From PVC group bacterium (GTDB taxonomy: Bacteria; Omnitrophota; Gorgyraeia; B26-G9): a DNA stretch of 64,000 nt. The notes below the pieces were generated by a model. That model was not told the DNA's origin. It saw only the letters and a list, made by a program, of their open reading frames with translations, and made no database searches. Both the position numbers and the translations under genes were made by a program. The DNA is taken from the NCBI GenBank assembly GCA_024231215.1, contig JAAEQR010000099.1:50401-114400 (forward strand), given 5' to 3'. This document shows, piece after piece, positions 16,101-40,149 of this stretch. Within the stretch, counting starts at the first letter, position 1, and each line of letters opens with the position of its first letter.

Positions 16101-19100
16101 TCACTCTAATCACCGGATACGCAATCGCAAACGGAACATCCGACATATCAGATATAGCCGGGGTGTCATTATCTGTAACTCTTATTTTTGCGGTAATTGA
16201 ATAATCATCCACCACAATCCAATCATATGTACCATCATTAGTTTCAAAGTTCGCAATTAAATTAATATCACTGCCAAAATTGTCTTTAGAATATTCAATG
16301 CGCAAGTTATCACTTACGCTTCCTAAAGAACCCCAGGTGATTTCCTGAGCCGTACCAATCGCCCAGCTTTCACCGCCATTAGGCGCAATAATATTTACAT
16401 ACGGCAGTCTAATCGCAAAAACAGAATCAGATTGATCTGTAGTCGCAATTCGTGTCGCGTCAAATATTCTGACCAAGCAATTGGTTGATAAGTCATTCGG
16501 TATTGTCCAAACATAATCTCCGTCATTTGCTTCTGCGCTGGACACAGTATTCCACGCTCCGCCTCCGTCAGAAGAATACTCTATAGTTAAGTCATCGCGA
16601 ATCGCTTCATCTGTATTGCCTTCGGATGTCCAATTAATTCCATGCGTGGTTCCTACAATCCATTCTTCTGCACCATTCGGGGAAGTTACTGTAATTGTCG
16701 GCGCAACAATACTAAACACAGCATCCGACATATCCCAAACTGTAGCCCTGGCATTATCTGTAAGTCTTACCAATACCTGGTCGGAAAGATCATCTGCCAC
16801 ATCCCAGGTGTATGTCTGATCATTTGGCTCTCCTGTTGCAATCGTATTCCAAGCCACCCCGCCGTTGCTGGAATATTCCAGCAACAGATCATTTGTAACC
16901 GCACCCAAGAATGTCCAGGTAATTTCGTAATCGCCTGTTGCATACCATGTCTCTGCCCCATTAGGAGAAGTGATTGTTACCGCAGGAATTGTGATTTGGA
17001 AAACATCGTTTGAAACATCAACAACCAATGCGTCATTCTCATCCATGACCCGAATAAGCGCTTCTATTGTTTCTACATCTGCTACTGTCCACGTATATAA
17101 ACCATCATTAGTTTGCTGGTTGCTAATTAGATTCCACGATCCGCCATTATCATCCGAGTAATAAATCGCCATCTCATAATAATCAGCGCCGCCGGATTCT
17201 AATTTTTGGCCATAAGATTCCCAGGTGATATCATACTCTTCCCCAATGGCCAATACTTCTCCGCCGTTTGGATCAAGCATCGTGACTATTGGATAAGGAA
17301 TAACCGTAAATGCTTCAGATATCCCTGTAACCTGAGTCCATGCATTATCCGTAATTTGTACCTGTACTATATTTGAATCTATGGCGTCCGGAATCGTCCA
17401 TGCATATATACCATCACAAGCTTCATTATCCGCGATAGTATTAAAAATTAATCCATCTGTTGTATATTCAAACAGTAAATCATCTGTTACCGTTCCAAAA
17501 ATCGTCCAAGTAATATCATGGATATCTGCAGACACCCATGTCAATCCGGATACCGGGGATGTAATCGTAATATAAGGAAAAACAATCGAGAAATCAGCAT
17601 CTGACATATCCCAGATAATGCTCTGGGTATCTCTGCCGCCAAGAATCGAATCTTCTCTTATTCTTACTTTCACAGTTGTAGAAATATCTTCCGGCACTGT
17701 CCAGTCATATGTCCCGCTAATCGTATCATTTGCATCCGAACCACTAGGAGTTCCTATACTTGTCGTAATAATCGCAGTTTCCGTACTAAAATTATCTGTT
17801 GAATAATCAATAATCACATTATTCACAAACTGCGTAGAATTGGTTGCCCAATTGACTTCATATTGATTACCAACAATCCATTGTTCCGCACCATTCGGTG
17901 CCCCAACGATTAATATTGGCTGTGGTACAATGGCCCAAACCGCGTCTGATTCATCTACCACATCGGTATTATCCGCATCGTAGATTTTCAACAATACTTC
18001 ATCTGATGGATCATTTGCTATTGTCCAGTTAAAATTCCCTGTATTTGGACGCTGGGTAGAAGCAGCTATCCAGGTTGATCCATTGTCCGGAGAATATTCT
18101 ATGGTCAGATTATCATTTACTGTTCCAGTTGAAGCCCAGGTAATCGTATGCTGTCTGCCTGCTTCCCAGATGTCTCCTCCGTTCGGAGAAGTAATGATCA
18201 AGCCCATGATTTGGAAAATAGCATCCGATTCATCGCTAACATTTGGAAATTCTACCGAGCTCACCCGGACCAAAGCATTAGGCGATGCGCTATCCGGCAC
18301 TGTCCAGCCATGACTACCGTCATTAGCTGTCGAAGCAATCACTTCATTCCAACTGCTTCCGGTATCCGCAGAGTATTCTATTTGTACATTTGAAGCTGCT
18401 CCATCAACGCCCTCTGATGTCCAGGTAATAGTATGGGACGATGCAACCGCCCATTGTTCTGCTCCATCAGGAGAGCTAACATTGATTTCCGCTCGGATAT
18501 AATCAATGTCTATACTATCTATCACCGGGGTGCTCTCCCCGTATGAATATAAGGTTGTTTTATACTGAAGATATCGATCATCCAAACAATCTTCATTTAA
18601 GGTATTGATTGCTTCTGCGCCAGCAGAGTCAAAATAATAACTCGGCGGACTCGCTAAGGTAATTGTTACTTCATCCAATTCCGGGGTATTTATTCCGTCA
18701 TCAGTATGTAAATACGCGCGGTAATAAAAATCTCCATCCGGAAATTGTGATTGAAAATTAGTTAAGTTTGCATTAATCTCTGCCGCGGTATTAGTATTCG
18801 CATAACCAAAATCAACCTTTGCCCAACTACTTCCATTATGCCAATACCAATTATATCCGTCCGCGGAAACTTGATAGCCTACTTCTGTCCCTGCGGGTTC
18901 AGTCACAACATCCTGGAAATTAACCAGATTCCCTTCGTAAAAAACACCGATTATCGGCTGAATTACAGGGTTATCATCATAGTAATTAGTAAGGCTGTGC
19001 GTGTTGGCCGGGTGTACATACGTATCTTCAGCGTCCTGAGCCATCCCGACAGTATTATTTTCTAAAATTGCCCATTCATCCGTATGGGCCTGCTCACCGC

Positions 19101-22100
19101 TATCGTGGTGCACTATATGCGGCTTTAAATTGCTCTCCGAAGAATATGAAGATTCATAAAGCAATGTCCATGTGCTAGAATCGACAATGCGATAGTAATA
19201 GTCTGCTCCCATGCTCTTTAACACAATGCGAATTTCATACCATGTACCCGGAGAATAACTACCCACACCTTGCCTATAGCTACCATCTTCATAAATATGA
19301 AAATTCCCGTTATCAAAATATATCGCATGCGGCATATCCTGATAACTTGCACCTCCAGCATTACTTTTCCAGCCGATCATTGTCCGAGAACCAGAATCAG
19401 CTTTTATTTTCGCGCAAAACTCTATGTTTGATCTAGCATAGAAATTATTAGTATTAAGATAACAATCCCAGTCATCACTGTTATTCTGTAATGTAACATA
19501 TTCATTCTGCGTTACTGTTCCTCCTCCATACATAAACGTTGATCCCGCTATTGTTGTGCCATGGAAATTGTGAACAAACACAGCGATTATGCCTTTGGCG
19601 CTCGCGCTTAGATCACTTGCTCCGGAAGCCCCAGGATTTCCATAATACAAATATATCGTTTTATCAGCTAGGGCGGAAAAAGAAGGTATTTTTGTGTAAA
19701 CCATAGCTTTTTTTGAGACAAAATCAAAGCTGTCAAGATAGTAATTTAATACTGTAGTATCGTCCGAATCTACAATCCTAATATCTCCTCCGTCATTTTT
19801 TACATTACTCCAAAACTCATGCCAGTTGTCCAGCTTTAACTCTACCAGCTGATTAGTTATATCTGCCGTTGTAAAATTGGTTACTGTAATCGGAATTTTA
19901 TACGCCCACGCTGCTAACCCTGGACATGTGCCAGCTTCTTCCTCCATAGAAAAATATGTTTTTATATACTTATTTAGAGTTAATGGCATACGTTCTGTAG
20001 CAGATACATACTGTATACAGCTTCCATATCTTGGCCCATATTTTTCCACATAAGCCTCTCCCGCGTTAAGCCCCTTGCGGCCAATCATAAGATATTTAGA
20101 ACGATAGGCTAGCCCGCTCAACAGCGCATCGCTTGCCCCAAAATTCTTAAGCTCATTTTTCAAAGAGGTGTTATTATATATATTATTTCTCGGTTCATCA
20201 TAAGTGGTAACAATAATTAATGTATCATCGGGCAATCCCGCTAAATACGCTTCCATTGCGTCTGCTTGCGCGCTATCATTGTGACAATCATATTGCATTG
20301 ATTCCACCCAATTTAGATCAGCATCCAATCGGGTAACTGCCCAGCTTATAGTTGTTGTATGCCTTAAGGTTCCATCAACATATACATAATGATCTCTTGG
20401 CCCATCATCGCTTCCAGCTGACGAAATATTAAGATCCCCCACATTAATAATAGTATCGTTGCTATCCGATGCCGCACTAGCTGAGCCATATAATAAGTGG
20501 ATAGTTTTTATCTCATCTATTGCAATTGTTGGAATTTCAACAAAAATAACCGCAGTTTTTTCTGCATAATTAAACAACTCCAAACAATACTCTAAAGTTT
20601 GCGTACCATCATGAAATCTAATATCATCTCCGTCAGTCTGGACATTAGCCCAGAATTGAAGGTTTGAAAAAGGTATCTCTACTTTGACCAAAACATCTGT
20701 TCCCGCTTCTCCACCTGTATTATCTAAAACAATTTTATTAGCATAAGAAAAATCCGGCAACCCGGCAAATAAATCTCCATCTTCAAACTCCACGCCACCC
20801 TTAGAAGGATATTCCGCAGCACTGTTGCCGTAATACAAATAGATAGTTTCTGAAGATTCCGCGGCAATAAACGGAATTTTTGCGCACACTTCCGCCTCTG
20901 TATTAGCATAATCAAATGTTTTCAAAAATGATTCTAAAACTGTGCTATCGTCAGAATCAACTACACGCACATCTTCCCCATCAATTTTTACGTTCTTCCA
21001 AAACTCATGCCAGTTATCTATCTTTATATTAATAATTTCATCGGTTAAATCAGTTAGCCCGGAATTTGTTATTGTAATAGGTAACCTGTACTGCCAGCCT
21101 GAAAGAGCAGGGGAGCTGGCTAGTTCTTGTGCAACTGAAAAACAAGCAAAAGCCCCTCCTCCTAAAACAATATTATCTACCCCAAAACTCTCATCATAAT
21201 CCCCTCCGGAACTTAAGTTAGACGTGAATCTAAGCGTTAAATCTCCACCTGGGTGATCAAATGTAACTTTATATGCCCTGCCAAGATAATCACTTCCTGA
21301 GCGTGTAGTTATATTACCTATATTTTGAGCTGCGGTAAACTGATACGTATTCCACACCAAGCCACCATTCGCATAAAGATAGCCTCGTTCACCGTCCCAG
21401 GAATCCATCCAATAATAATCAAAAGTCACCTCATAACTACCCGCCGGGGCATTGCTTTTCGTATACATTGTATACTGCCCCTCTCCGCCATACTTTCCCA
21501 TCATTCCATGCCCGCCAGATGTATATGTCTCCGGATCAGAACTGCCCACATTATCTGTCCACCCAGTATAATTAGGATAAGACCATCTATTGGCAATCGT
21601 TGAATCACTCTCTGAAATTGCCGAAACAGAACCATAAAGCACGTAAATTGTTTGTATGGAATCCGCTGAGAGCAACGGTATTTTAACATCGATGCTTATA
21701 CTTTTGCTGGCATAATCAAATGTACTTAAGTAATACGATAATTTTATACTCCCATCATAAAATCTGATGTCACTACCCTCTGATCGTACATTGTCCCAAA
21801 AATGAGTATTTGAAGGGAATATCTTAAGTGATACCAATTCATCTGTTTTCTCCACACCGCCCGTATTATCAATAATTACCGCTTGCGCATGTTTAAAGTC
21901 TGCTAACTCCAACTGAATTTTTGCGGTTCCGGCACTTACTTCTATTTTGCTGGAATAGGCATAATCTGCCTGCATAGAATAATCATTACCTAAAACCTGA
22001 GCATCCGCAATCCCCAGCCATTCTGTCCAGGAAATATTATCTGCCGAGGTTCTAAGCTGTAATCGAGCATCTGTACCTAGAGGAAGTGTCTCCTGCCAGG

Positions 22101-25100
22101 TAAGATCCAAAAGTCTGCTTGTAGCAAAAGTAGTATCATAAACAGAAGATATCAGCATCTGAGAAATCGGGTATTTCTCCCACTCAATTCGCATCTCTTC
22201 GATTGCTGGGCTTTCCAATAAATTATCGGTTGAAAAAGTTATTTTGTATTGCAAATATTTTGCTGTGTCCGGACACGCCGCAGATGTGCTCAAATCCGCT
22301 CCATTAGCCACATCAGCAATATTAAACCATTCCGAGGTATCAGATAAATCTGTTTCATTTCCCGCGCGAAAAGATACAGTCGCGCATTGGATATCATTAA
22401 AATCCCAGCTAATATTGCCCCAGCCGGAATGATTGCCAATCTCTTTTATTTTTGATGTATAATTTCCAAAACAAAACGCATAATATTTAGCAAATTTTCT
22501 TCCTCTGCCCTGGGTCGCGTAAAAATATTCTCCGTCCGCCCAAATCAAAGTCCCGGGATGCCTGATATTAAAAGAAGCAGGGGTAAGCTCTTCCCATAAA
22601 TTATTCTCCACATCATATCGCAGAAAAACATATGAACCAGACCAGTCCCACCAAGACGAACCATGAATCAAATATAAATAATTTCCAAACCCCGGATAAA
22701 TAGCTTCCGAATGCCCCGTATGAAGAGGCACCGGAGCCGGAGTACGCACACTCCAACTACCGCTTCCTATATGATATCTGTATAAATTTGATGAACGATT
22801 TCCAGTCATCACGTACAAATAATCATCGCTTCCCGGATATACAACCTGCCCCCCATATCCTACATATTGCGGCGTATCATTAAGCACAGACCAGGAATCA
22901 TCCGCTAAATCATATTGCCAAAATGTATTTGATTCGCCTCTTAATATATACAAGTAATCACCATAATGACATATGCTATTCCCAACTTCAAATGGATCCG
23001 GCGGGGGAGATAATTCTATCCATAGATCCGCAGCAACATCATACCGGTAAAAACTTGCCAGGCTATTGCCTCCGGTAACATAAATTGAAGGCTGTCCCTG
23101 GTATTCAACAACTCTTATTGTTGTATCTGTTTGATCAAATGTTAGGGGAGGATCAGCTAATGTAGACCAAGTATTAGCTATTGTACTATATCTGTGAAAA
23201 GCATCTCTGTTTAAATAATAAATATACCCTTTATACCCGGCAAATGAGCAATCTTCATTCATGTCCTCGGGTAAAAATGACGGCAAATCATATGTATTTT
23301 CTGTCACATGATAGCGCATAAAATAACTTCCCCATTGATAATTAAAAATATAAAACCAGGGCTTGCCTACAGTCACTATAGACGCCTCATAACTACTTGT
23401 TGTGATCGGTAATTTTGCCAACTGTTCCCACAAATCTTGCGTAATAGAATAACGGTATAAATATTCGCTTGTTGCTCTCGGGATACTGTAAATATAATCT
23501 CCGGATCCCGGATAAAACAAAACGCCCCCGGAACCGGTTGTTTCCACTGTCTCTCCCATGCCAGTTTCATCTCCTACCTGTGTCCGGCTTAGCCAGGTAT
23601 CTACGCTAGGATCATATTCATGAAAAGTTGACTCATCATCTCCGGGCATTAAATATACCTTGCCCTGCGCATATACTAACCCATTAAGCCAGTCATCATG
23701 CGCCCTCGGAGCATCCGCAAAAGATGACCAATAATCTGAACTATTATAAACAACAAAATTTGTCGAACCCCATCCACCCATCATAAATATCCGGTCATTA
23801 TCATTATCCGCGGCCACTTCCGCGCCGCGCCAAAAACGCAAAGATGATTCCGCGCATTCAATCCAGGTTTTGGTTGTAATATCATATCGATACATCTCGG
23901 TCGAACCACGACCCTTAGTAATATAAATAGAATTCGTCGCTGTCAAATACGAAGCTTTTGCCCCAGGAGCCAGCACAAAAGGCACCCGGATTAAATCTGT
24001 CCATCGATTTTGATCCGCATTATATACCCAAAAATGAGAAGGGCAACTAGACTCATCTCCATGAATAACATAAATATTATTATTAGCATCGGCCACCGTC
24101 ATCCCCATTTGATTATCATGGCGATCTATAACCGGCTCATTCCATTGTCCTGTAGCTGGATCATACTTCCAAAAATTATTATATCCATAATTAGCAATAG
24201 CAAATATCGCTGTGTCTGTTCCGGTAATACAACTCCTTGCCTGATGAAATGGTGTCGGCTCAAGAATATCCCAAGCATCTGTATCCATGTTATAGCGTAC
24301 AAACCCATAACTATATCCAATGCTATCCCAATCGGCCGACAATCCATATACATAGTTATTTGCGGCGCTTGTATGTGCGATGGAAGGACCTGCGTCCATA
24401 TGAAATCTGAAATTATTTGGAGCATCAGTTACTTTTGTCCAAACCCCTAAGTTATTACCATCGCTATCTAAGTCATCCTGATCACTAATATCATCTTCTA
24501 TGGGACCATACTTATAAAAATTCCGGCTCCATTGGCCACGACAAGCATAGATATAAGTATATCCATCAGATTCGGTATAATTAGAATAAACCATAAAACT
24601 TCCATCCATACTATCTGTTGTAGAATCCATTGATTCCCACGTTTCACCAGCAACATCATACCGATAAAAATCATATGTATCTGTGCCGCGCAAAGCATAC
24701 ATATAATCCGTACCACCAACGTTTATCCCGATCACCCCAGAACCATAATCAACATTCTGCGGAAAATCAGTTAATGTTTCCCATGCATCACTGCCCGGAG
24801 TCTGCGAAACATCATAACGCCAAAAATCATCAGACTCAGCCCCTCTTAAGCAATAAACATACCCGTTCAAATACCCTAATCTATTCCCTCCATGTCTAAT
24901 ACCACTTGGAGCATGTGCTAATTGTTCCCATTCATTATTCGAGATTGAATACCTAAAAAACGTGGAACTATCCTCTGCCGGCACATAATAAATATAATCA
25001 CCGATCCCCGGATAACAAATATTTATACCATACCCCCTGTCTGTCGGCGCTTGAACTAATGTACTCCATTTCCCATTAACAATATCGTATCTCCATGGAC

Positions 25101-26421
25101 GAGTATAATTTCTCCCAGAAAAAAACTGTAATTCTTCGCCTTCACTCGGTCCGCCTAAATCGGGATCATACATAATAAATTTGCATTCTGCTGTTGGGGC
25201 CGGAAGATTCGGTAATTTTTCCCAGACCGGGCTCCCTGTCAAAGGTCCGTAGCGATAAAAACCTCTATCCGTGCGATAAGTACCTAGCCTTGTCCGAACA
25301 TCATACATCCCTGCGGCATAAATATAATCGCCAGAACCCGGATACCAGATATCAGACCCACGCCAAAATTCAGTATCATAACCATAGAGATCAGGAAGAT
25401 CCGCAATCCCGGTATCCCAGGAATTAGTACTAATCTGATATCTCCAAAATGTCTCATAATGCCTTCCCGGCGTACAATAAATATAATCCGCTCCTGTTTT
25501 ATACGCTAAAGCTCCGCCTTGCTCTACGTTATCCGGGGTGGAAGCTCTGTCTCTCCAAACTCCTCCGCCAATATCCGGATTGTATTCGAAAAAATTACGA
25601 TCATCGCCGCCGCCTAAAGCAAACAATCTTCCCGGGGTAGTCGCATGTGTTAATTCATTGCCTGTATGCGCAAGGTCCGATCCAAGATTAATTCCTTTGG
25701 TTAAAGACAGAAACTGGCGCCATTCGCCCGGAGGTGGTGATTCCATCGGAAATGCGGTATTGCCCGGATCGGGATCCGCAACATCCGAAGGCAAATAAAA
25801 ATATGTTTCTTTTGACCCGGATCCACGCAACGCGTATATATATTGGCCATCATTGGTGATTGTTGCTCCCGCGGCTACAGCTACAGACATTGGCGCTAAA
25901 AATTCCCATACTTGATTTGTAATATGAAAACGGCCGAATTGTTTCCCATCGCCAGAAGCAAACAAACAATATATATAATTACCCATTCGAGTGTAAGTAG
26001 AAAATGTGCCTGGATCAGGAATAGACGGTAAGTTCAGCCATTCGCCCAAGCCGGAAGCAAAAGAATCGGTCACGCTGGAGGTTAACTCTACCTGGGCAGC
26101 ATTGCCTGTCCCATTTATAACTATATCTTTCAATGTCCCATCAGAGAAATCCGTGTCTGTAGTGTCCGTAATCATAAACGTATTCGCAGATAAAGATAGA
26201 GCTCCGCCTGAAGTCAGAATATTGCTGTCCCGGGAAGTATATTCAGCCCAGCTGCTCTGGTCTCCGGGGTGGCTTGCGTCATTAGCACTTGAGCCTCCGG
26301 ACCAATCGGTTTGATTAAACGTACCGGCTTCCTGAACATACCCTGTCTGTGCGAGCATAAAAACAATAAGCAGAGATGTAAGAAACGCCGCAATTATCTT
26401 GTAATATTCACGCGCTTTCAT
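13123..26421 (-). CDS. Giant secreted multidomain protein (4432 aa)
   Basis: Single uninterrupted 13.3-kb ORF with a signal peptide. Kelch-type beta-propeller blades run from aa 140 to 1310. A DUF2341-like, LamG/ConA-like and ILEI-like lectin region runs from aa 1515 to 2450. About 13 tandem Ig-fold repeats of 95 aa each run from aa 2645 to 3915. An acidic coiled coil follows, then a distinct C-terminal domain. Confidence 0.9.
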   Translation of the reverse strand: MKAREYYKIIAAFLTSLLIVFMLAQTGYVQEAGTFNQTDWSGGSSANDASHPGDQSSWAEYTSRDSNILTSGGALSLSANTFMITDTTDTDFSDGTLKDIVINGTGNAAQVELTSSVTDSFASGLGEWLNLPSIPDPGTFSTYTRMGNYIYCLFASGDGKQFGRFHITNQVWEFLAPMSVAVAAGATITNDGQYIYALRGSGSKETYFYLPSDVADPDPGNTAFPMESPPPGEWRQFLSLTKGINLGSDLAHTGNELTHATTPGRLFALGGGDDRNFFEYNPDIGGGVWRDRASTPDNVEQGGALAYKTGADYIYCTPGRHYETFWRYQISTNSWDTGIADLPDLYGYDTEFWRGSDIWYPGSGDYIYAAGMYDVRTRLGTYRTDRGFYRYGPLTGSPVWEKLPNLPAPTAECKFIMYDPDLGGPSEGEELQFFSGRNYTRPWRYDIVNGKWSTLVQAPTDRGYGINICYPGIGDYIYYVPAEDSSTFFRYSISNNEWEQLAHAPSGIRHGGNRLGYLNGYVYCLRGAESDDFWRYDVSQTPGSDAWETLTDFPQNVDYGSGVIGINVGGTDYMYALRGTDTYDFYRYDVAGETWESMDSTTDSMDGSFMVYSNYTESDGYTYIYACRGQWSRNFYKYGPIEDDISDQDDLDSDGNNLGVWTKVTDAPNNFRFHMDAGPSIAHTSAANNYVYGLSADWDSIGYSYGFVRYNMDTDAWDILEPTPFHQARSCITGTDTAIFAIANYGYNNFWKYDPATGQWNEPVIDRHDNQMGMTVADANNNIYVIHGDESSCPSHFWVYNADQNRWTDLIRVPFVLAPGAKASYLTATNSIYITKGRGSTEMYRYDITTKTWIECAESSLRFWRGAEVAADNDNDRIFMMGGWGSTNFVVYNSSDYWSSFADAPRAHDDWLNGLVYAQGKVYLMPGDDESTFHEYDPSVDTWLSRTQVGDETGMGETVETTGSGGVLFYPGSGDYIYSIPRATSEYLYRYSITQDLWEQLAKLPITTSSYEASIVTVGKPWFYIFNYQWGSYFMRYHVTENTYDLPSFLPEDMNEDCSFAGYKGYIYYLNRDAFHRYSTIANTWSTLADPPLTFDQTDTTIRVVEYQGQPSIYVTGGNSLASFYRYDVAADLWIELSPPPDPFEVGNSICHYGDYLYILRGESNTFWQYDLADDSWSVLNDTPQYVGYGGQVVYPGSDDYLYVMTGNRSSNLYRYHIGSGSWSVRTPAPVPLHTGHSEAIYPGFGNYLYLIHGSSWWDWSGSYVFLRYDVENNLWEELTPASFNIRHPGTLIWADGEYFYATQGRGRKFAKYYAFCFGNYTSKIKEIGNHSGWGNISWDFNDIQCATVSFRAGNETDLSDTSEWFNIADVANGADLSTSAACPDTAKYLQYKITFSTDNLLESPAIEEMRIEWEKYPISQMLISSVYDTTFATSRLLDLTWQETLPLGTDARLQLRTSADNISWTEWLGIADAQVLGNDYSMQADYAYSSKIEVSAGTAKIQLELADFKHAQAVIIDNTGGVEKTDELVSLKIFPSNTHFWDNVRSEGSDIRFYDGSIKLSYYLSTFDYASKSISIDVKIPLLSADSIQTIYVLYGSVSAISESDSTIANRWSYPNYTGWTDNVGSSDPETYTSGGHGMMGKYGGEGQYTMYTKSNAPAGSYEVTFDYYWMDSWDGERGYLYANGGLVWNTYQFTAAQNIGNITTRSGSDYLGRAYKVTFDHPGGDLTLRFTSNLSSGGDYDESFGVDNIVLGGGAFACFSVAQELASSPALSGWQYRLPITITNSGLTDLTDEIINIKIDNWHEFWKNVKIDGEDVRVVDSDDSTVLESFLKTFDYANTEAEVCAKIPFIAAESSETIYLYYGNSAAEYPSKGGVEFEDGDLFAGLPDFSYANKIVLDNTGGEAGTDVLVKVEIPFSNLQFWANVQTDGDDIRFHDGTQTLEYCLELFNYAEKTAVIFVEIPTIAIDEIKTIHLLYGSASAASDSNDTIINVGDLNISSAGSDDGPRDHYVYVDGTLRHTTTISWAVTRLDADLNWVESMQYDCHNDSAQADAMEAYLAGLPDDTLIIVTTYDEPRNNIYNNTSLKNELKNFGASDALLSGLAYRSKYLMIGRKGLNAGEAYVEKYGPRYGSCIQYVSATERMPLTLNKYIKTYFSMEEEAGTCPGLAAWAYKIPITVTNFTTADITNQLVELKLDNWHEFWSNVKNDGGDIRIVDSDDTTVLNYYLDSFDFVSKKAMVYTKIPSFSALADKTIYLYYGNPGASGASDLSASAKGIIAVFVHNFHGTTIAGSTFMYGGGTVTQNEYVTLQNNSDDWDCYLNTNNFYARSNIEFCAKIKADSGSRTMIGWKSNAGGASYQDMPHAIYFDNGNFHIYEDGSYRQGVGSYSPGTWYEIRIVLKSMGADYYYRIVDSSTWTLLYESSYSSESNLKPHIVHHDSGEQAHTDEWAILENNTVGMAQDAEDTYVHPANTHSLTNYYDDNPVIQPIIGVFYEGNLVNFQDVVTEPAGTEVGYQVSADGYNWYWHNGSSWAKVDFGYANTNTAAEINANLTNFQSQFPDGDFYYRAYLHTDDGINTPELDEVTITLASPPSYYFDSAGAEAINTLNEDCLDDRYLQYKTTLYSYGESTPVIDSIDIDYIRAEINVSSPDGAEQWAVASSHTITWTSEGVDGAASNVQIEYSADTGSSWNEVIASTANDGSHGWTVPDSASPNALVRVSSVEFPNVSDESDAIFQIMGLIITSPNGGDIWEAGRQHTITWASTGTVNDNLTIEYSPDNGSTWIAASTQRPNTGNFNWTIANDPSDEVLLKIYDADNTDVVDESDAVWAIVPQPILIVGAPNGAEQWIVGNQYEVNWATNSTQFVNNVIIDYSTDNFSTETAIITTSIGTPSGSDANDTISGTYDWTVPEDISTTVKVRIREDSILGGRDTQSIIWDMSDADFSIVFPYITITSPVSGLTWVSADIHDITWTIFGTVTDDLLFEYTTDGLIFNTIADNEACDGIYAWTIPDAIDSNIVQVQITDNAWTQVTGISEAFTVIPYPIVTMLDPNGGEVLAIGEEYDITWESYGQKLESGGADYYEMAIYYSDDNGGSWNLISNQQTNDGLYTWTVADVETIEALIRVMDENDALVVDVSNDVFQITIPAVTITSPNGAETWYATGDYEITWTFLGAVTNDLLLEYSSNGGVAWNTIATGEPNDQTYTWDVADDLSDQVLVRLTDNARATVWDMSDAVFSIVAPTITVTSPNGAEEWIVGTTHGINWTSEGNTDEAIRDDLTIEYSSDGGGAWNTVSSAEANDGDYVWTIPNDLSTNCLVRIFDATRIATTDQSDSVFAIRLPYVNIIAPNGGESWAIGTAQEITWGSLGSVSDNLRIEYSKDNFGSDINLIANFETNDGTYDWIVVDDYSITAKIRVTDNDTPAISDMSDVPFAIAYPVIRVTVPNGGELWTVSDAEIITWDNTGSVGNDLLIEYSKDNFISDVNTIIGSTTNSGSHNWTIPNDVSASMRVRITDNTRPVVWDRSDGMFTVLPIPQLTILTPNGSEIWRVGTIQDVTWEDNGGLISNNLTVQYSSDGGTVYQDITTGAANMGAYSWTIPDDVSAICLVKVFDADRPSNEDVSDDVFAIADPLITITAPNGGEVWAVADQAPATWTTEGSISDNLVAEYSPDGGSTYFVIGSGELNDGEYTWDVPDDVTNNALFKLTDGNRPVSTDVSDEFFRIIPIPTFDVTAPDGGEEFVLGDMTTITWTWEGLSISDNLVIDMSGDGFATRRIIAVGEANDGLYTWDIPDDALTGPTLKLRITDGNRSEITNQSAGFFRIRGGFTINVPNGDEDWVAKSDHTVMWQTRGTIAKIKLDYSTDNGLNWNLIAANVDNIGSYVWILPDAQTTEAMVRVSDPDDSTVFDVNDAVFNIVYASVVFNILDYDTLQHLQDVNVNEPGTGWNDSGLNSAITRSASYPYATYTTFLSKTNFIDNSVTWVVPKSGTDTYIVNIYLENSASAQVTWEAILTYSFSPGSDTLSAVGSLQRKGKLVGTNALERADMGPAVLSIYTPDGTTVRNNVSANAPNENGMYTLTLPGTGFEAGYVYPATLTVLYRGRDYTSSANIDVGSEILQYEFFTQTATQLAASVAQIEESVGEGTESMITELEDTRDSLEGTLEEATDNLTETMEETTTALTEELSATRESLEGSLAAAEDELQTTMKSKILNREKQAKSGDEINVRYQTYSGMSPKIDVYDVKNVQRIIKGSMVEMGTTGIYEYPVKFYSAWGIGDYTIICSEETRGTLDSLTITVVRNTVDDIAGQTSAILGATSGLSDIGGIVDILNNQVGLIETSFTRIAKDFLNEAKQGSGMSKELNIIYKQLSDMGSQIKEFGKLESVGIENRLEVAAEKKKDIKYLKNKTQEMKAMLELNNQMIENISDKPMSQVWYEF

Positions 26422-26505: not shown

Positions 26506-27429
26506 TTATTCTTCGATTTTTGCTTCTAGTTCTTTTATCCTCTTTTTTTCTATTTCCATGCGTTTTTGCATAGCTCTATATGAAACCATGTCTGCCGCAT
26601 ATCTCTCTTGTAGATTTTGTTTTAGAACTTTTGTTTCTGTCTTTATTTTCTGCTCAAACTTCATTCTTTCTGTTTCTTGCGTAATCACCAGTTTTTTCTG
26701 TAAATGCATATTCACAGAATATAAAGCACCCACGAGCAAAAGCATCACCCCAACAGCCACGCCACTCATAACACGCTTCTTGTGCTGCTCTTCAGGTTCT
26801 TCTTCGGGATTATCTTCTTTTGCAGCTTCTATTGCTGCATCTATTTTCTTTTTAAACTCTTTGGATCCAATAACTCTTTTGCGGCCCAAAGCATTACTTA
26901 AACTGGCAATTTCATCCTTGCCCATTATTTCGACAAAATCAGCATAACTGCGTCCGTCTAAACTCTCGAGTCCTTCTGTTTTTTCCTCAGCAATGTTGAC
27001 CGTATCCGCTAAAAGCTCATTTTTTACATATAAGGCATAGCTGCTAAATGGGTTTTCCTGGGAATGCATGCAGGCAATCACTTTTCCTAGCCAAGGCATT
27101 TTTTCAATTAATACACAGCGATACCGTTCGGTAAATAAATGTCCGGTACGATCATATTTTTTATTAAAATATTTAATGTAAGAAGAGTTCAGGTCATGCA
27201 TGATTTGCGAAATAGTTACACCTTCAACCAGTTCTATTAATAAATTAAGCTGGGATGAGTCTAAAACATAAGCAAATAATTTAAATCCATGTTGTTCTTT
27301 GTATTTTTTCAAAAGATCCACATAAGCTTGAAAATCTTCATTGTCTTTAAAAATATTCCGATTATTGTCTCCTCGAGAGGTAGTATGATATAAGGCTCCT
27401 TCAATATTGATTCTCGGCATCCTTGGCAT
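26506..27429 (-). CDS. Inactivated IS200-like Y1-transposase-fold domain fused to a TM helix and a C-terminal coiled coil
   Basis: The N-terminal 150 aa align to IS200/RAYT TnpA. The strand-1 YH motif is kept (ALYHTTSRG) and so is the catalytic-Tyr region (FTERYRCV). The HuH histidines are replaced (SQLNLLIEL where HIHMLLEI is expected). A TM helix (GVAVGVMLLLVGALYSV) and a K/E-rich coiled coil follow. Start assigned at the internal Met preceded by an AAAGGAG RBS. Confidence 0.65.
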   Translation of the reverse strand: MPRMPRINIEGALYHTTSRGDNNRNIFKDNEDFQAYVDLLKKYKEQHGFKLFAYVLDSSQLNLLIELVEGVTISQIMHDLNSSYIKYFNKKYDRTGHLFTERYRCVLIEKMPWLGKVIACMHSQENPFSSYALYVKNELLADTVNIAEEKTEGLESLDGRSYADFVEIMGKDEIASLSNALGRKRVIGSKEFKKKIDAAIEAAKEDNPEEEPEEQHKKRVMSGVAVGVMLLLVGALYSVNMHLQKKLVITQETERMKFEQKIKTETKVLKQNLQERYAADMVSYRAMQKRMEIEKKRIKELEAKIEE

Positions 27430-27525
27430 TATGCAGCTCCTTTCGCTGGTAATTTCATCAGTCAATAGCTAATAGTCTATGGTTTTGATTTTTCTTTGTA
27501 ATGCTATTAACCCTAGACTTCTTCC

Positions 27526-27538
27526 TAGTGCGTGGCAC
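27526..27538. repeat. 13-nt perfect direct repeat TAGTGCGTGGCAC, copy A
   Basis: Exact second copy at 27712-27724. The two copies bracket the intergenic terminator and structured region. Confidence 0.6.
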
Positions 27539-27552
27539 TTTACTTGTTTTGC

Positions 27553-27584
27553 AAAAAAAAATCTCAGACAAACTCGCCTGAGAT
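27553..27584 (-). terminator. Strong intrinsic terminator: 7-bp stem followed by a 9-nt U-run on the minus strand
   Basis: Minus-strand transcript ATCTCAG-gcgagtttgt-CTGAGAT followed by UUUUUUUUU (plus-strand A9 at 27553-27561). Lies between the 95-aa gene and the Y1-like gene. Confidence 0.7.
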
Positions 27585-27711
27585 CACTTGCTGCAACCTG
27601 CCAATCCCGACTCTCGTCTCAGGACGCACGGCTTTGCGTCCCCAGCTTCCGCTGAGTTTGCCCACATTAACTATATATTATAAGTATACCTTACTATATA
27701 AATGCGCGCAA

Positions 27712-27724
27712 TAGTGCGTGGCAC
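27712..27724. repeat. 13-nt perfect direct repeat TAGTGCGTGGCAC, copy B
   Basis: Identical to 27526-27538. On the minus strand it lies about 28 nt upstream of a TTATAAT hexamer (27683-27677). Confidence 0.6.
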
Positions 27725-27770: not shown

Positions 27771-28058
27771 TTATTTAGCCGCCGTTTTTTCAAGTTTTCT
27801 GCGACGTAATGCACTTTGTGCAACCTCTTGAGCTAAAGCTTCATACTCAGCTATCTGCTGCTCATATTCTTTGTACATTTCATCAATAGCTAAAGTTTCC
27901 TGCTTTGCCATTTCAATATCGTATTTAGCCTCTTCTCCCTGGGCAATATTTTGTGTCCATAATCCGGCAAAAACAATCATTACGCACAAAACAAAAATAC
28001 TGGCACCGAGAAACCCCATGACTATCTTTAAAATTGTATTTGATATACTTGCTTTCAC
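27771..28058 (-). CDS. Small bitopic membrane protein with coiled coil
   Basis: N-terminal TM helix and a Q/E/A-rich coiled coil. Overlaps the upstream gene by 4 nt. Confidence 0.5.
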   Translation of the reverse strand: MKASISNTILKIVMGFLGASIFVLCVMIVFAGLWTQNIAQGEEAKYDIEMAKQETLAIDEMYKEYEQQIAEYEALAQEVAQSALRRRKLEKTAAK

Positions 28059-28711
28059 TCTTCGCTCAACTCCTGAATCCAGGCTATAACCTCTTTTACA
28101 TCTTCTCCGGCTGGATTTGCTTCTAAATAAAGCTTGTACTGTAAAACCGCTTTGTGAGGTTCTTTGGTAATCATGTGATAAATAAGTCCTAAGTTATATA
28201 ATGCTTCATGATTTTGCGGATTAATTTCTAAGGCTTCATCATACGCTTTAATAGCTTCCTCATACATTTTTGCTTTTGTGTATGCTACGCCTAAATTATA
28301 ATAAAAACGTGTTCGTTCGGATTTTAGTTCCTGCTCTAAATTTGTTACTGTTTGTTCTAGCGCGGCAGTTGAAGATTTTTCTTGTTTCCATTTATTAATC
28401 AAAGCTTCGCTTGCATTTAATTTCTTTTCCGAAACTTCTAACTTGCTCATCAATTGCTTTTTCCCATCCTGAAAAGCATTTATCCGGCTTAAATGACCCA
28501 CAACATCTGCGCTTAATTTTTCGTTTTTATCTTCTAATCTTGTTTTCTCCTGCTTTAGTATCTCTATTTCAGCCCGCATATGCGCGGAAAACTCCTCGCT
28601 TTTAACAAATCGTTCTTCCCAGACCTGTTGCCGCAAAAAGAAAAAAACAGTTGCCAGCGCAATTGCAATTATTATAACGATACCTATTAAATAAATAGTT
28701 TTGTTTTTCAT
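28055..28711 (-). CDS. Bitopic membrane protein: TM helix, coiled coil, C-terminal TPR repeats
   Basis: TM at the N-terminus, then a long coiled coil. TPR motifs YYNLGVAYTKAKMYEEAIKAYDEALEINP and ALYNLGLIYH. Paralogous to the 366-aa neighbour. Confidence 0.6.
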   Translation of the reverse strand: MKNKTIYLIGIVIIIAIALATVFFFLRQQVWEERFVKSEEFSAHMRAEIEILKQEKTRLEDKNEKLSADVVGHLSRINAFQDGKKQLMSKLEVSEKKLNASEALINKWKQEKSSTAALEQTVTNLEQELKSERTRFYYNLGVAYTKAKMYEEAIKAYDEALEINPQNHEALYNLGLIYHMITKEPHKAVLQYKLYLEANPAGEDVKEVIAWIQELSEE

Positions 28712-29808
28712 CGCAGCATTCTGAGATAGGAGTTAACCCTTCCCTTATTTGATGAGTTTGGATTAAGTCGTAAGTATGTTTCAAACGCATTAACCGCTTT
28801 GGCATTGTTTTTTATATGCGCATAAAGCAGCCCTAGCTGATAATAGTATGCGGCTATTTGTGAGTTGCGGGCAATTGCCTGCTCATAAGCTGTTATCGCA
28901 TCTCTATATCTGCGCTGTTTGGTATACATTAGGCCCAGCCTAGCTTTCTCAATTGATGGATCGCCACTTTCCACTTTTTCAGAAAAAGAGGGAAGCTGTT
29001 TTACCTTGCGAAAAGTTGAAGATGCCTTGCGCCGGCCAAATAATTCAGCCGCGCGATCATCCCATAATTTCAATTGTTCTTCTGTAAAATTATATCGTTT
29101 TTCCAACAAGCTATAAGAATCGTTCAAGAGGTGTTTTTCTTCTTTTAAAAATACGACCTCGTTTTCGAGATTTGCTATTGCCTCTTCGTGTTCGATGCTC
29201 ATTGAATTTTTTTCTTTTTCATGCCGTTGTTTAAGTTGTTCTATTGTTTGTTTTAAATCCGCTATTTCCTGCCGTAGATCCGCAAACATCTTTTCGCGTT
29301 CTGCAATCACTATCCACTGACTATCGGTAAGTTTATTTAAACGAGTATTATCTTCCCCCAAAAACTCTGCGGCTTGGGATACTTGCTGATATTTCTCTCT
29401 TAAGCCTATCAGCTCTTCTTTTAAGATGATATTTTTTTTAGATAAAGCAGCTCTGTCTTTTTGTAATTTTGTAATTTTATCGGCAGTTTCTAAATCGGCA
29501 AGCTCTAAAACCTCTTGTTCTTTTTCCTGCAAACGTGAAGTTTTTTGCCGAAGTAATTCCACTTCGGCAACAAGTCGGGCAATAAAAGATTTATGGGGAG
29601 AAGATTCGCTTTGCTGGGCATCGGATATTAATATTTCGCGTAAAACCGTATTGTCTTCTGTAAGTGTAGCTATTTCTTGCTTAAGATATTGAATGAACTG
29701 TTGGGTATCTTCATTTTCTGCTGCATACAAAAACATATTGCATTTCAAAATCAAGATTATGAATAGACTTATTATGAATAAGAACTTCCGTGTCCTTACC
29801 AAAACCAA
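28708..29808 (-). CDS. Bitopic membrane protein: TM helix, long coiled coil, C-terminal TPR repeats
   Basis: Same architecture as the 28055-28711 gene. TPR motifs AITAYEQAIARNSQIAAYYYQLGLLYAH and AVNAFETYLRLNP. Confidence 0.6.
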   Translation of the reverse strand: MVLVRTRKFLFIISLFIILILKCNMFLYAAENEDTQQFIQYLKQEIATLTEDNTVLREILISDAQQSESSPHKSFIARLVAEVELLRQKTSRLQEKEQEVLELADLETADKITKLQKDRAALSKKNIILKEELIGLREKYQQVSQAAEFLGEDNTRLNKLTDSQWIVIAEREKMFADLRQEIADLKQTIEQLKQRHEKEKNSMSIEHEEAIANLENEVVFLKEEKHLLNDSYSLLEKRYNFTEEQLKLWDDRAAELFGRRKASSTFRKVKQLPSFSEKVESGDPSIEKARLGLMYTKQRRYRDAITAYEQAIARNSQIAAYYYQLGLLYAHIKNNAKAVNAFETYLRLNPNSSNKGRVNSYLRMLR

Positions 29809-29830
29809 CTCCTTTCGGCCTTGCCGCTTA

Positions 29831-31609
29831 CTACTTAATTCCTTTTAATTTTTCATCAAACAAAACTACCGAATCCGCATCACTTGTCGTTTGGGCCTCA
29901 GGATACGGTAATTGAGATTGTTCTAATTCCTGCAAAAACTGATCATTGCCGCCAGACATTCCTGTTTCAGGCAATGAATTCATGTTTTCTAATTCTTGCA
30001 GAAAAATATCTTCTGTTTCAGATTGTGACATATATGTGTCAATAACCATTTTTCTATCTCCCGGCTCTTTGGTAATAGAGTGTTCTCCGGTGATAATATG
30101 CGGGGTGATAAATACGATCAGCTCTGTCTGGCTGCTTCCTTGCGTTTTTGAGCCAAACAATCCGCCGATAAACGGAATCCTATGAAGCCAAGGAATCCCT
30201 GCTTCATCCTCCCTCTTCTCATCTTCTCTGAGGCCGGCAATCATAATCATTGTTTTATCTTTTACTTTTATGAAAGTCTCTACCTCTGATGTAGCCACAA
30301 TTGGAATCCGGCTGCCTAAAGACGTTGTGATCGTTTCAGAAACGTTGCTTACTTCAGGCTTAATCTCCATCGTCACAAATCCGTCGTTGCTGATCTTCGG
30401 AACAACCTTCAACTTTACTCCAACATCAATAAATTCAATCCCTTCAGAAGTTACCGTAGTAGATTCAGCCTGACTTAGCGTCTGGGTTACATATACGTCC
30501 CGCGTCCCAACCATGATCCTTGCTTCTTGATTATTTAAAACCGCAAGTCTGGGGCTTGATAAAATTTTAAGATCTCCATATTCCTGTAAAAATTCAAGCG
30601 CTATATTATAATCTCCCGGCTGCAGGGTTCCGATAGAGATGTTCCCAGAAGTTGCAAGCGCCGGCGTCACCGGGAAAGCAGCCGTCACTTCTGATTGCGC
30701 GCTGTTAAAAAAACTTTGCCAGTCAATCCCGCGATTAAAACGATCACTCATATTAATCTGGATAATTTCCGCTTCAATAAATACTTCTTTTTCCGCAACG
30801 TCTAAATTAGCTATAATTGTTCTGATTTTTTTCATTTTCTCCGAAGAATCTTCGACAATCAATCTCGAGCTTTTTACATCCACAATGATTTGACCCACAT
30901 CCGGGGTAACAACTTTCTCTAAACTCTTTTTTATTGCAATAGGATCCGCGGAATTCAATTCAAACACTACTGTCTCTGTCGGACAGTCAAGTTTCTTTAC
31001 CATATCTGCCATCAATTCCAACCGCTCCGGGATATCAAGTAAAATAACCATGCCGGAGGCTTTATCTATAATTACCTTCCCAACATCTGATTTCAACTGA
31101 CTTACTATGGTAAAAACATTGGTTGGATCTGCATAACGCAATTTGATATTTTTGTATTTTTTAGTTTCCAGATAATCATGCCCATACAATCTTTTGTATT
31201 CGGCCGCGGTCATAATATATATTATTCCTCCCCGCCGCTTGCAAGCTAAGTTCTGCGTCGCTAATATAACATCTAATGCTTCCAGAAAACTCACATTGTT
31301 TAAGAAAATATCTATTCTGCCGTTTAATCCCTTGCTCGGCACAATTGTTAATCCTGTCTTTTGGGCCAGCATGCGCAGTAAATTAATAATATGCATGCCT
31401 TTTAAATCCAGCGATATCGTTGTGTTTTCCCCTTGTTTTTTAGAGGTTGTTTCTATCTTTCCTTTGCCTTGTTGTTCCTTAGGGCTATCTGAAACGGCTA
31501 GTTCATCGGGATTTTCGAATATAGCCTCTTCCGAAGATTGCGCTATTACTAAAGACGTTCCAACCGCAATCATCAAAAATATTATACAAATGTGTCGTAT
31601 AGTGCGCAT
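29831..31609 (-). CDS. pilQ: Secretin (PilQ/GspD family) outer-membrane channel
   Basis: Signal peptide, N-terminal secretin-N domains, and a canonical secretin C-domain (VVPKISNDGFVTMEIKPEVSNV ... IPWLHRIPFIGGLFGSKT ... TELIVFITPHII). Start taken at MRTIRH to avoid overlap with the upstream gene. Confidence 0.85.
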   Translation of the reverse strand: MRTIRHICIIFLMIAVGTSLVIAQSSEEAIFENPDELAVSDSPKEQQGKGKIETTSKKQGENTTISLDLKGMHIINLLRMLAQKTGLTIVPSKGLNGRIDIFLNNVSFLEALDVILATQNLACKRRGGIIYIMTAAEYKRLYGHDYLETKKYKNIKLRYADPTNVFTIVSQLKSDVGKVIIDKASGMVILLDIPERLELMADMVKKLDCPTETVVFELNSADPIAIKKSLEKVVTPDVGQIIVDVKSSRLIVEDSSEKMKKIRTIIANLDVAEKEVFIEAEIIQINMSDRFNRGIDWQSFFNSAQSEVTAAFPVTPALATSGNISIGTLQPGDYNIALEFLQEYGDLKILSSPRLAVLNNQEARIMVGTRDVYVTQTLSQAESTTVTSEGIEFIDVGVKLKVVPKISNDGFVTMEIKPEVSNVSETITTSLGSRIPIVATSEVETFIKVKDKTMIMIAGLREDEKREDEAGIPWLHRIPFIGGLFGSKTQGSSQTELIVFITPHIITGEHSITKEPGDRKMVIDTYMSQSETEDIFLQELENMNSLPETGMSGGNDQFLQELEQSQLPYPEAQTTSDADSVVLFDEKLKGIK

Positions 31610-31611
31610 CA

Positions 31612-32175
31612 CTATATCTCCCATTCCTTATTTTCTTTTTGCAAAACTACACTGTCTTCTTTTATTGTTTTTACAGTAAATGTTTCAAACATTTGCCCTT
31701 GCTGCAATAAATGCGTTTCCCTTGTTATTGTATCCTCCAAAATAACTTGAGGCACATCTGTTTCCCACCAGACCCCGACAAACGATAACTGCTTCATCCG
31801 AGCTTCTGCTTCTTTTACCCAATTTGCTTTTTTTTCGCTAATAATTTTAGCCTGTTTCCCTGGGATTAATCCAAAAATGTTGTAGCGGATTCCGCTTTCC
31901 AAATTTTTTTTTATTACCAACAAGAAAGAAGCATCTATTGTTTGTCCCTTCTCCGTTGCTATATTCTTAGTGATTGCTACAAACCTTTTTTCTTTTTTCA
32001 GTTTTTGATAAAAAAGATCAAAGACAAAATAAGCCGTTATTATTACCCCGCAAACAATAATAGTTTTTATAACTTTCTGCAGGCTAATTGCCTTCAATTG
32101 TTTTTTTATCGCTTCCTGCAATTCCTGAACAATTCCCGGCTTGGGATTCCCGGCCACAACCCCTTTTGATTCCAT
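31612..32175 (-). CDS. PilP-like bitopic protein (short cytoplasmic N-terminus, TM helix, periplasmic beta domain)
   Basis: Topology and size match the PilP/GspC HR-domain class. Lies immediately upstream of the secretin gene and is co-oriented with it. Confidence 0.4.
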   Translation of the reverse strand: MESKGVVAGNPKPGIVQELQEAIKKQLKAISLQKVIKTIIVCGVIITAYFVFDLFYQKLKKEKRFVAITKNIATEKGQTIDASFLLVIKKNLESGIRYNIFGLIPGKQAKIISEKKANWVKEAEARMKQLSFVGVWWETDVPQVILEDTITRETHLLQQGQMFETFTVKTIKEDSVVLQKENKEWEI

Positions 32176-40129: not shown

Positions 40130-40149
40130 TTTTCCCAAGTAATTAAACT

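Follow-up and report, generated by a model that had tools for sequence, protein, structure and literature searches.

Within a 64,000-nucleotide stretch of contig JAAEQR010000099.1 from a PVC group bacterium of the phylum Omnitrophota (hereafter the window), the minus-strand gene at 26506-27429 encodes a domesticated HUH (His-hydrophobic-His)/Y1 transposase-like protein that combines a new architecture with a new, tightly conserved regulatory context. The protein carries a single transmembrane (TM) helix, and we will henceforth refer to its gene as the Y1-TM gene. It represents a large Omnitrophota family of membrane-anchored Y1 proteins, not previously described. The gene is part of a fixed module consisting of a promoter, a class I cyclic di-GMP (c-di-GMP-I) riboswitch, a terminator, an oriented sequence box, a ribosome-binding site (RBS), the Y1-TM gene, sometimes small open reading frames (ORFs), and a giant secreted protein. 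We propose, with a probability of roughly 0.4, that the product is a membrane-tethered, non-catalytic nucleic-acid-binding adaptor or regulator of the giant-protein operon.

The ORF list contains an intact minus-strand ORF at 26506-27465, of 319 residues when counted from a TTG at 27465. The true start is likely the ATG at 27429, which is preceded at 8 nt by a GGAG RBS and gives a product of 307 residues. Because this product is 100% identical to P0001, a deposited protein of a 'PVC group bacterium' metagenome-assembled genome (MAG), the gene was taken as 26506-27429. Residue numbers follow the 319-residue numbering throughout. The gene and the parts of its product are as follows (AF2, AlphaFold2 model; 4ER8, structure of TnpA_REP).

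26506..27429, minus strand: gene for a membrane-anchored RAYT-like protein, predicted to be catalytically dead (ORF list, RBS, identity to P0001, homologues)
27025..27396, minus strand: core domain of the Y1/HUH (TnpA_REP-like) type, spanning residues ~24-147, with a predicted cytoplasmic location
27244..27252, minus strand: Q72-L73-N74 (CAG CTT AAT) at the metal-binding HUH position (alignments)
27070..27072, minus strand: Cys132 at the position of the catalytic Tyr (Y115 of TnpA_REP), followed by an 11-residue alpha-D deletion (profile-to-4ER8 alignment)
26800..27024, minus strand: serine motif and helical extension, residues ~148-222, with near-invariant G200 and F204 (xILGSxxF) (AF2 helices, conservation)
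26716..26772, minus strand: transmembrane helix, residues ~232-250 (hydropathy scan, AF2)
26509..26715, minus strand: C-terminal 68-residue K/E-rich helix with the motif KYxADxVSYxAMxKRLExEK (alignments, AF2)

The N-terminal 220 residues constitute a complete class-2 TnpA_Y1 (RAYT/TnpA_REP-like) domain, followed by the TM helix and the charged helical tail. Pfam reports a single domain, Y1_Tnp (PF01797), over residues 25-122 (E=6.7e-9; 36.4 bits, cut-off 23). The AF2 model has a predicted local distance difference test (pLDDT) score of 91, and its best Foldseek match in the PDB is TnpA_REP (4ER8, E=4e-5), with the IS200, ISDra2 and IS608 transposases next. This structure comparison of the N-terminal domain with known TnpA proteins, suggested in a preliminary description of the stretch, bears out the Y1-transposase fold that was assigned there. 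At the level of sequence a profile-to-PDB comparison was needed; a search of the PDB with the single protein gave only a spurious match to the TM helix. By its fold and its similarity to PF01797 the protein thus belongs to the Y1_Tnp/HUH superfamily, while at the enzyme level it falls outside, having neither a His-hydrophobic-His on beta-3 nor a catalytic Tyr on alpha-D. The NCBIfam equivalog for RAYTs, REP_Tyr_transpos (NF047646), scores 30.8 bits, below its cut-off of 80. In Pfam the window protein has no match to the inner-membrane families of type II secretion systems and type IV pili (GspL/M, PilN/O, GspC), and no OmpR-type winged helix was detected, Y1_Tnp being the sole domain. The top 50 PDB fold matches listed consist of Y1 transposases, Thg1-like enzymes and small ferredoxin-like designs, with no type II secretion or type IV pilus protein among them.

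In TnpA_REP, H59 and H61 are the metal ligands and Y115 is the nucleophile (PMC3479197). The family profile places 'LPnhlhLliEl' on H59-M-H61 of 4ER8 and 'aYiHlnP' on D-Y115-I-Y-I-N119-P. Over the HUH position the family consensus reads LPNHLHLL, where the window protein has Q72-L73-N74; the earlier observation that the HUH motif is replaced was therefore correct. The same cannot be said of the claim that the Tyr-bearing helix is kept. At the family Tyr motif A-Y-I-H-L-N-P the window protein has Cys132, and the 11 residues after H134 are deleted; the Tyr referred to was probably Y115 of 'ERY', a residue of strand beta-4 whose counterpart in TnpA_REP is F98. Judged from these alignments, the active site of the window copy appears destroyed, with HUH changed to QLN, Tyr to Cys, and alpha-D shortened. 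P0003 and P0004 (~50% identity) have His in place of Tyr and an intact HUH, P0002 (82% identity) has the Cys and the alpha-D deletion with HLH still present, and QLN is confined to the window lineage among the close relatives compared. The probable order of decay in the window lineage is thus Tyr first, the alpha-D deletion next and HUH last, and the loss of HUH appears to be very recent and restricted to this lineage.

Beyond the core domain, the AF2 model has helices at 159-167, 174-195 and 202-218 in the extension and one unbroken helix over 225-318. Residues 232-250 are the sole strongly hydrophobic segment (mean hydropathy 2.08), in line with the TM helix of the preliminary description; the K/E-rich tail, given there as 90 residues, is 68 residues long. 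Since the protein has no signal peptide, its N-terminal domain of ~220 residues is presumably cytoplasmic and its tail extracytoplasmic. We infer that the tail is periplasmic and pairs as a coiled coil, with the Y1 domain N-in.

A word-indexed search yielded 104 homologues, mostly of 300-340 residues, with at least 95% query coverage and ~40% identity. Those that are named come from Omnitrophota MAGs, under the annotations 'transposase' or 'REP element-mobilizing transposase RayT'. When 1.84 billion cluster representatives were searched exhaustively with a profile, 4480 matches at E<=1e-30 were obtained, the best 150 of which all have E<=1e-63. Conservation was evaluated in a pooled sample of 223 full-length family members. 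The TM helix plus a helical tail of ~70 residues, the form of the window copy, is found in 119 members ('short'), so that the search for orthologues with the same fusion, also suggested beforehand, had a clear outcome. A further 94 ('long') have a TM helix followed by a domain of 130-200 residues, predicted to be an 8-stranded beta-barrel (pLDDT ~80-88), and 10 are without a clear TM helix.

The catalytic residues are kept in 62% (first His, H1), 75% (second His, H2) and 77% (Tyr) of the sample, and the HUH+Tyr triad is complete in 114 members (51%). Homologues sharing 5-residue words with the query form a biased sample, in which both His are intact in 83-90% (H1 89%, H2 91%). Non-catalytic residues are kept far more strictly: Y96 in 99.6%, K98 in 96%, G108 and R114 in 100%, G200 in 98% and F204 in 97%, and the window protein has all of the family's near-invariant residues. 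The densest conserved block, S86-N101 plus G108-R114, corresponds in the 4ER8 alignment to helix alpha-C and strand beta-4, the region of R78, K81, K82, H86, K91 and R97. In TnpA_REP these six residues contact the REP hairpin, alpha-C lying in the hairpin's minor groove and R97 making a base contact (PMC3479197). Because catalytic residues are lost in many members and the binding surface is kept, the common function of the family is most simply binding, not cleavage. Across the family, catalysis looks dispensable and binding essential, and the exapted binding fold postulated in the preliminary description fits these figures well (62-77% for catalytic residues, 96-100% for alpha-C/beta-4 residues).

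The leader of the Y1-TM gene contains the following elements.

27714..27724, minus strand: identical repeat of the box core, GTGCCACGCAC, adjoining the putative -35 on its upstream side
27683..27711, minus strand: putative sigma-70-type promoter TTGCGC-N17-TATACT (read by eye)
27589..27672, minus strand: c-di-GMP-I riboswitch aptamer (RF01051; Rfam 54.7 bits against a gathering score of 35)
27553..27585, minus strand: intrinsic terminator of the expression platform, an 11-bp stem plus T9
27528..27541, minus strand: leader box AAAGTGCCACGCAC, between terminator and RBS

The aptamer match is full-length and free of non-canonical pairs; both hairpins and the GGCAAAC / ACGCAAAGCC cores are present and the score exceeds the gathering score, which places the element in the c-di-GMP-I class. 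The same aptamer is carried by the orthologous leaders of loci L001, L003, L004 and L005 (44-66 bits), and every orthologous leader has a hairpin with T6-9 that begins 27-61 nt, mostly 30-50 nt, past the aptamer. The promoter was not called by a consensus scan; either GGTATACT or TGCTATACT is conserved 20-30 nt ahead of the aptamer in the window, L001, L003 and L004. With each GTDB species represented by a single genome, a scan yielded 59 loci, nearly all in Omnitrophota; 55 of them have upstream sequence. With a covariance model built from four aptamers, the aptamer was found on the same strand upstream of the Y1 gene in 48 of these 55, at 10-435 nt (mostly ~90-250 nt) before the start codon. 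In three further species loci it is located between the Y1 gene and the next ORFs, just downstream of the former. An OFF-switch model was considered and rejected, in which an aptamer stretch that matches the 3' arm of the terminator in the window, L001 and L003 could pair with the 5' arm.

Three observations concern riboswitches of this set. L037 carries two tandem Y1-TM paralogues (5995-6918 and 8278-9207), each with its own aptamer (5787-5871 and 8053-8138). In the P0095 sub-branch (L005, 10004-10125) the called gene start overlaps the aptamer, and the true start codon probably lies further downstream than the deposited one. In the window, a 706-residue GGDEF (diguanylate cyclase) protein is encoded ~6 kb from the riboswitch (33329-35449, minus strand), a possible local source of the signal.

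The box is rare in the window. Allowing one mismatch or fewer, the 11-mer GTGCCACGCAC has just two matches in the 64 kb, with ~0.23 expected by chance; a generic repeat search around the gene returned mostly chance matches, a 13-nt direct repeat being the only meaningful one. A second, upstream copy is also present in L001/L006, L004, L007, L009, L010, L015 and L017, and each copy of the box is a possible 4-bp hairpin. The family-wide consensus is AAA-GTGCC(A/T)GGCAC, that is AAAGTGCC(A/T)GGCAC, and the short-form clade that includes the window has the variant AAAGTGCCACGCAC. In most leaders the box lies 12-15 nt past the T-run in one or two copies, the last of which lies 22-46 nt before the start codon. 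Terminator and box are found together in nearly all leaders, the box being listed for those of L003-L061 and L065-L144. Since the position-weight matrix shows conservation of the 5' AAA and lacks symmetry in the 3' flank, the box is an oriented element and not a symmetric operator, which rules out a reading as a dimeric operator. Throughout 622 kb of locus DNA it is essentially confined to riboswitch leaders and to extra riboswitches of the same loci.

A metagenome scan that was blind to protein and used only the DNA pattern T7-N8-20-AAAGTGCCAGGCAC returned 80 loci, 69 of which have at least 400 nt of sequence downstream. The first ORF encodes a Y1-family protein in 59 of these 69 usable loci (E<=1e-53), the Y1 gene is the second ORF in two more and lies just upstream in one, and the aptamer is found immediately upstream of the pattern in 66 of the 80. 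The few remaining loci, which lack a riboswitch, are probably chance matches. From this co-occurrence we conclude that riboswitch, box and Y1-TM gene form a tight triad.

Two other readings of the box were discarded. As a sigma-54 promoter (TGGCAC on the opposite strand) it has, by eye, the wrong spacing to the GC element, is antisense, and abuts the RBS in minimal leaders. Pairing of the box with the 3' arm of the terminator holds in many long-form leaders and does not hold in the window clade. Some leaders contain short tandem repeats between box and start codon, namely those of L001/L006 (~9960-9990), L023, L024, L044 and L050, with units such as (AATGACA)x5, (GACA)n>10, (GGGTACA/GGGCACA)n and (GTTAGCC)n; such tracts might allow phase variation by slipped strands.

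On either side of this unit lie the genes below.

13123..26421, minus strand: giant surface-protein gene (4432 residues), encoding a signal peptide, Kelch propellers, domains of the DUF2341 (four), Kre9_KNH and ILEI families, and a coiled coil at the C-terminus
27771..31624, minus strand: upstream envelope cluster (ORF list, domain annotation; same order in L001, L003 and L004)
29831-31624, minus strand: secretin
28708-29808 and 28055-28711, minus strand: bitopic coiled-coil/TPR proteins of 366 and 218 residues
27771-28058, minus strand: 95-residue bitopic coiled-coil protein

The giant gene, whose domain scan also lists Ig-like domains, starts 84 nt downstream of the Y1-TM gene, across a spacer made up of a GC-rich hairpin and a strong RBS. 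The hairpin (26477-26497, GGGCGG...CCGCCC) stands between the Y1 stop codon and the RBS of the giant gene with no T-run directly after it; it is not conserved in relatives, and in L003 the Y1 and giant genes overlap. The statement that no hairpins flank the gene was thus right as far as IS-type ends are concerned, and overlooked the riboswitch, the terminator hairpin and the two boxes upstream as well as this GC-rich hairpin downstream. The three upstream proteins were described properly as bitopic coiled-coil proteins: in each of those of 95, 218 and 366 residues, charged helices with a heptad-like pattern come after a hydrophobic segment at the N-terminus, and two of the proteins contain TPR repeats.

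Gene order is shared with the loci of P0003, P0017 and P0045 (38-51% identity), where an AAA_22 ATPase, a small protein, the secretin, TPR/coiled-coil proteins, a protein of ~100 residues, a gap of ~300 nt, the Y1 gene and a protein of 4085-4513 residues follow one another; in all three the ~300-nt gap holds the c-di-GMP-I aptamer. Nearly all species loci continue with a very large ORF that extends beyond the 6-kb flank after >1300-2000 residues. It adjoins the Y1 gene in the short-form clade and otherwise comes after one to four small ORFs. The Y1-TM gene has a putative promoter, riboswitch and terminator of its own between it and the coiled-coil/TPR genes, and heads the giant-protein operon. 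L005 has no secretin within its flank, and has an NTP_transf_2/HEPN pair and a 1287-residue ORF downstream.

The region is chromosomal, with dnaN, gyrB and gyrA located 15-20 kb from the Y1-TM gene. Together with a probable dnaA (47966-49309), gyrA, gyrB and dnaN occupy 41179-49309, and the window adjoins the region of the chromosomal replication origin. Directly downstream of the giant gene are F-type ATP synthase genes (5074-11631, minus strand), including an OSCP-domain fusion (10831-11631), alpha (9340-10815) and gamma (8464-9318); the set resembles the 'symbiotic' F-ATPase/pilus loci of Omnitrophota (PMC10066038). Unrelated to the present finding, the stretches 38681-41179 and 36410-37213 concern genes for the RNA ligase RtcB and an archease on either side of an unannotated 201-residue ORF, and a PEP-CTERM-tagged protein encoded nearby.

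According to the proposal made above, the cytoplasmic Y1 domain would bind single-stranded or hairpin nucleic acid through its alpha-C/beta-4 surface without catalysis. Its most likely ligand would be the box in the leader of its own operon, on the mRNA or on the non-template DNA strand. Past the membrane, the tail, a coiled coil in the short form and a beta-barrel in the long form, may contact or sense the envelope machinery, including the secretin and the bitopic coiled-coil/TPR proteins. In this way the protein would link riboswitch-gated expression of the giant protein to the membrane. With an oriented box right next to the RBS, binding of mRNA or of the non-template strand would have one of two outcomes: autoregulation at the RBS-proximal box, or tethering of the very long transcript at the site of secretion. 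The logic would be like that of bitopic regulators of the ToxR/CadC type, the winged helix being exchanged for a dead transposase domain.

A more specific version of this proposal, which we put forward tentatively and regard as somewhat doubtful, is that the domesticated transposase domain acts as a membrane-tethered, sequence-specific RNA or single-stranded DNA binder of AAAGUGCC(A/U)GGCAC on its own riboswitch-gated leader, and thereby controls or localises the expression of giant surface proteins (4,000 to >20,000 residues) across Omnitrophota. If it is true, c-di-GMP aptamer, leader box and dead HUH protein make up a three-part module without a described counterpart.

Several results weigh against the nucleic-acid-binding proposal. 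Half of the family has an intact HUH+Tyr triad, a sign that many members may retain residual or conditional catalysis. Box and protein are linked by co-occurrence, all of it in loci that also have the riboswitch, and the box could belong to the expression platform of the riboswitch or be the site of another factor. In short-form loci one copy of the box precedes the promoter and thus stays outside the transcript, which fits DNA binding better than RNA binding; a membrane-tethered domain, in turn, has limited reach to DNA. When the box variant (CAC/CAG) was compared with the alpha-C residues, no clean covariation emerged from a comparison that is confounded by clade, and the leaders contain no clean compensatory changes for the box hairpin. 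General complementarity between the aptamer and a terminator arm was not found in a systematic test of 32 leaders. Finally, the N-in topology and the coiled-coil pairing of the window protein rest on inference.

An alternative that we consider unlikely, and the one that survives best, is that the Y1 fold has become a protein-protein module without a nucleic-acid ligand, so that the protein is a purely structural inner-membrane anchor of an apparatus formed by the secretin, the coiled-coil/TPR proteins and the giant protein. The gene indeed adjoins those for three bitopic coiled-coil proteins and the secretin in conserved order, and it is co-expressed with the giant secreted protein. The catalytic residues look dispensable, and the conserved motif in the C-terminal helix suggests a specific partner. 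However, the most conserved residues lie on the DNA-contact surface known from TnpA_REP and do not form a new patch, although that surface could have been reused for protein, and the strand-specific box goes with the gene almost without exception. Moreover, the long form has a beta-barrel and no coiled coil, and in many loci, L005 among them, no secretin is seen in the flank. The preliminary description had regarded the protein as a structural or membrane component of the envelope cluster; that it is simply one more such component is not supported, as the gene is set apart by its own putative promoter, riboswitch and terminator and heads the giant-protein operon. Although the role could be purely structural, nucleic-acid binding would be indicated at least as strongly by the leader box and the conserved nucleic-acid-binding surface, as read from sequence comparison.

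It is improbable, in our view, that the protein is a processive antitermination factor for very long operons, which, after recognizing the box in the nascent leader RNA or the non-template strand, would render RNA polymerase resistant to termination over a giant gene of at least 13 kb. Phage lambda has the layout pL-nutL-N, and lambda N/nut as well as LoaP with its leader hairpin would be the antitermination analogues. The order of promoter, leader element, gene for the factor in first position and long operon mirrors that layout; the box is oriented, occurs in one or two copies and follows the riboswitch terminator, and the genes further downstream are of exceptional length. Against this, a membrane anchor would make travel with RNA polymerase difficult, the protein has no homology to NusG/RfaH/LoaP or N, and the box copy ahead of the promoter in short-form loci does not fit. 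The argument is wholly one by analogy.

Equally hard to reconcile with the data is the notion that the proteins are active HUH enzymes at the membrane, cutting or joining single-stranded DNA, possibly to process DNA that enters or leaves through a secretin/pilus system or in a programmed rearrangement of the giant locus, and that the window copy is a decaying, non-functional relic. About half of the members do keep HUH+Tyr, the secretin gene adjoins, L001 has a gene for DprA a few genes further upstream, and some leaders contain simple repeats. Nevertheless, catalytic residues are lost in many members while non-catalytic residues stay invariant, and in the window lineage the losses can be traced in order (Tyr, alpha-D deletion, HUH). 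Catalytically dead copies, such as the window copy and P0003 (51% identity), keep ORF, RBS, riboswitch, box and synteny. Intact dead copies in a conserved context indicate purifying selection on a non-catalytic function.

That the gene is, or recently was, a mobile IS200/IS605 element or REPtron with the boxes as hairpin ends can be dismissed as highly implausible: the RAYT-like fold and the two direct box copies upstream, each a possible 4-bp hairpin, would be compatible with it, but both boxes lie on the same side and bracket the riboswitch instead of the gene, leaving no right end and no end pair, the box is the sole repeat and occurs twice in 64 kb, both times upstream, without the dispersal of REPs (in related loci it is confined to riboswitch leaders), nearly all protein clusters are found on one to few contigs, gene order is conserved across species down to 38% identity, the catalytic site is dead, and the neighbours are the 95-residue gene and the giant gene rather than tnpB, all of which agrees with the earlier statement that the gene is not mobile.

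The public label 'transposase' or 'RayT' is misleading. Papers on the giant genes of Omnitrophota describe type II/IV secretion-like loci next to these genes and mention neither a riboswitch nor a Y1-TM gene; one of them counts 'transposases' in giant-gene flanks as mobile DNA, and Y1-TM genes may be included in such counts. We found no mention of Y1-TM genes in these papers, and a full-text search retrieved no literature linking c-di-GMP riboswitches with RAYT, IS200 or PF01797. The Y1-TM gene is an unrecognised conserved component of giant-protein loci. Through the class I riboswitch, c-di-GMP would be the gating signal for large surface proteins that are thought to mediate attachment to host or prey in these uncultured, ultra-small bacteria. 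Domesticated Y1/HUH transposases are widespread, and the present family provides a fixed context, a candidate ligand and natural catalytic-dead variants, which makes a function other than transposition testable.

With the IS200/IS605 TnpA proteins (IS608, ISDra2, IS200) the family shares the fold. In contrast to them, the window copy is non-mobile, lacks two-sided subterminal hairpins and tnpB, has the class-2 Tyr motif instead of Y-x3-Q, and has an apparently dead active site. Class-2 TnpA_Y1 comprises subclasses with C-terminal extensions, among which subclass 2.1 has an HTH/DnaA_C-like extension and no REPs; a membrane-anchored subclass or an association with riboswitches does not appear in that classification (Quentin et al. 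2018, PMC6006769). Going by its description, subclass 2.1 ('TIRYT'-like) can be set beside the family, with which it shares the long class-2 form, the C-terminal extension after the serine motif and the absence of REPs nearby. The extension of the window protein, however, is a helical segment with LGSxxF followed by the TM helix, and has no HTH/DnaA_C match in Pfam. The family consensus resembles TnpA_REP/RAYT (E. coli YafM, 4ER8; class 2 TnpA_Y1, PMC6006769) in HUH, xYIxxNP and the serine motif after alpha-D, as well as in a conserved aromatic/Q/R strand (GHLFQER in the family, IWQPRF in TnpA_REP). Like RAYTs, it is single-copy, vertically inherited and domesticated. Unlike TnpA_REP, it has a TM helix and an extracytoplasmic tail, is not surrounded by a REP/REPIN array, and stands behind a c-di-GMP riboswitch together with a giant-protein operon; catalytic residues have been lost in about half of the members, and in the window copy all of them are gone.

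In Bacillus thuringiensis, Bc2-cap is an example of an adhesin gene under the control of a c-di-GMP-I riboswitch ahead of it (PMC4933901). The window operon likewise has a c-di-GMP-I aptamer with a terminator-type platform before a large surface-protein gene, but differs in having the Y1-TM gene and the box between riboswitch and surface gene, and in belonging to the phylum Omnitrophota. With respect to topology, two further systems may be compared. RodZ consists of a cytoplasmic HTH, a TM helix and a periplasmic domain, and its HTH binds MreB. It thus offers a precedent for a membrane-anchored nucleic-acid-binding fold that has been reused for protein binding, with an unrelated fold and no link to a riboswitch or leader box. 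In ToxR, CadC and TcpP, a cytoplasmic N-terminal DNA-binding domain is joined by one TM helix to a periplasmic domain for sensing or interaction. The similarity to the Y1-TM protein is a functional analogy in topology: the domain of the window protein is of the HUH/Y1 type instead of a winged helix, and its gene adjoins the genes that it would control.

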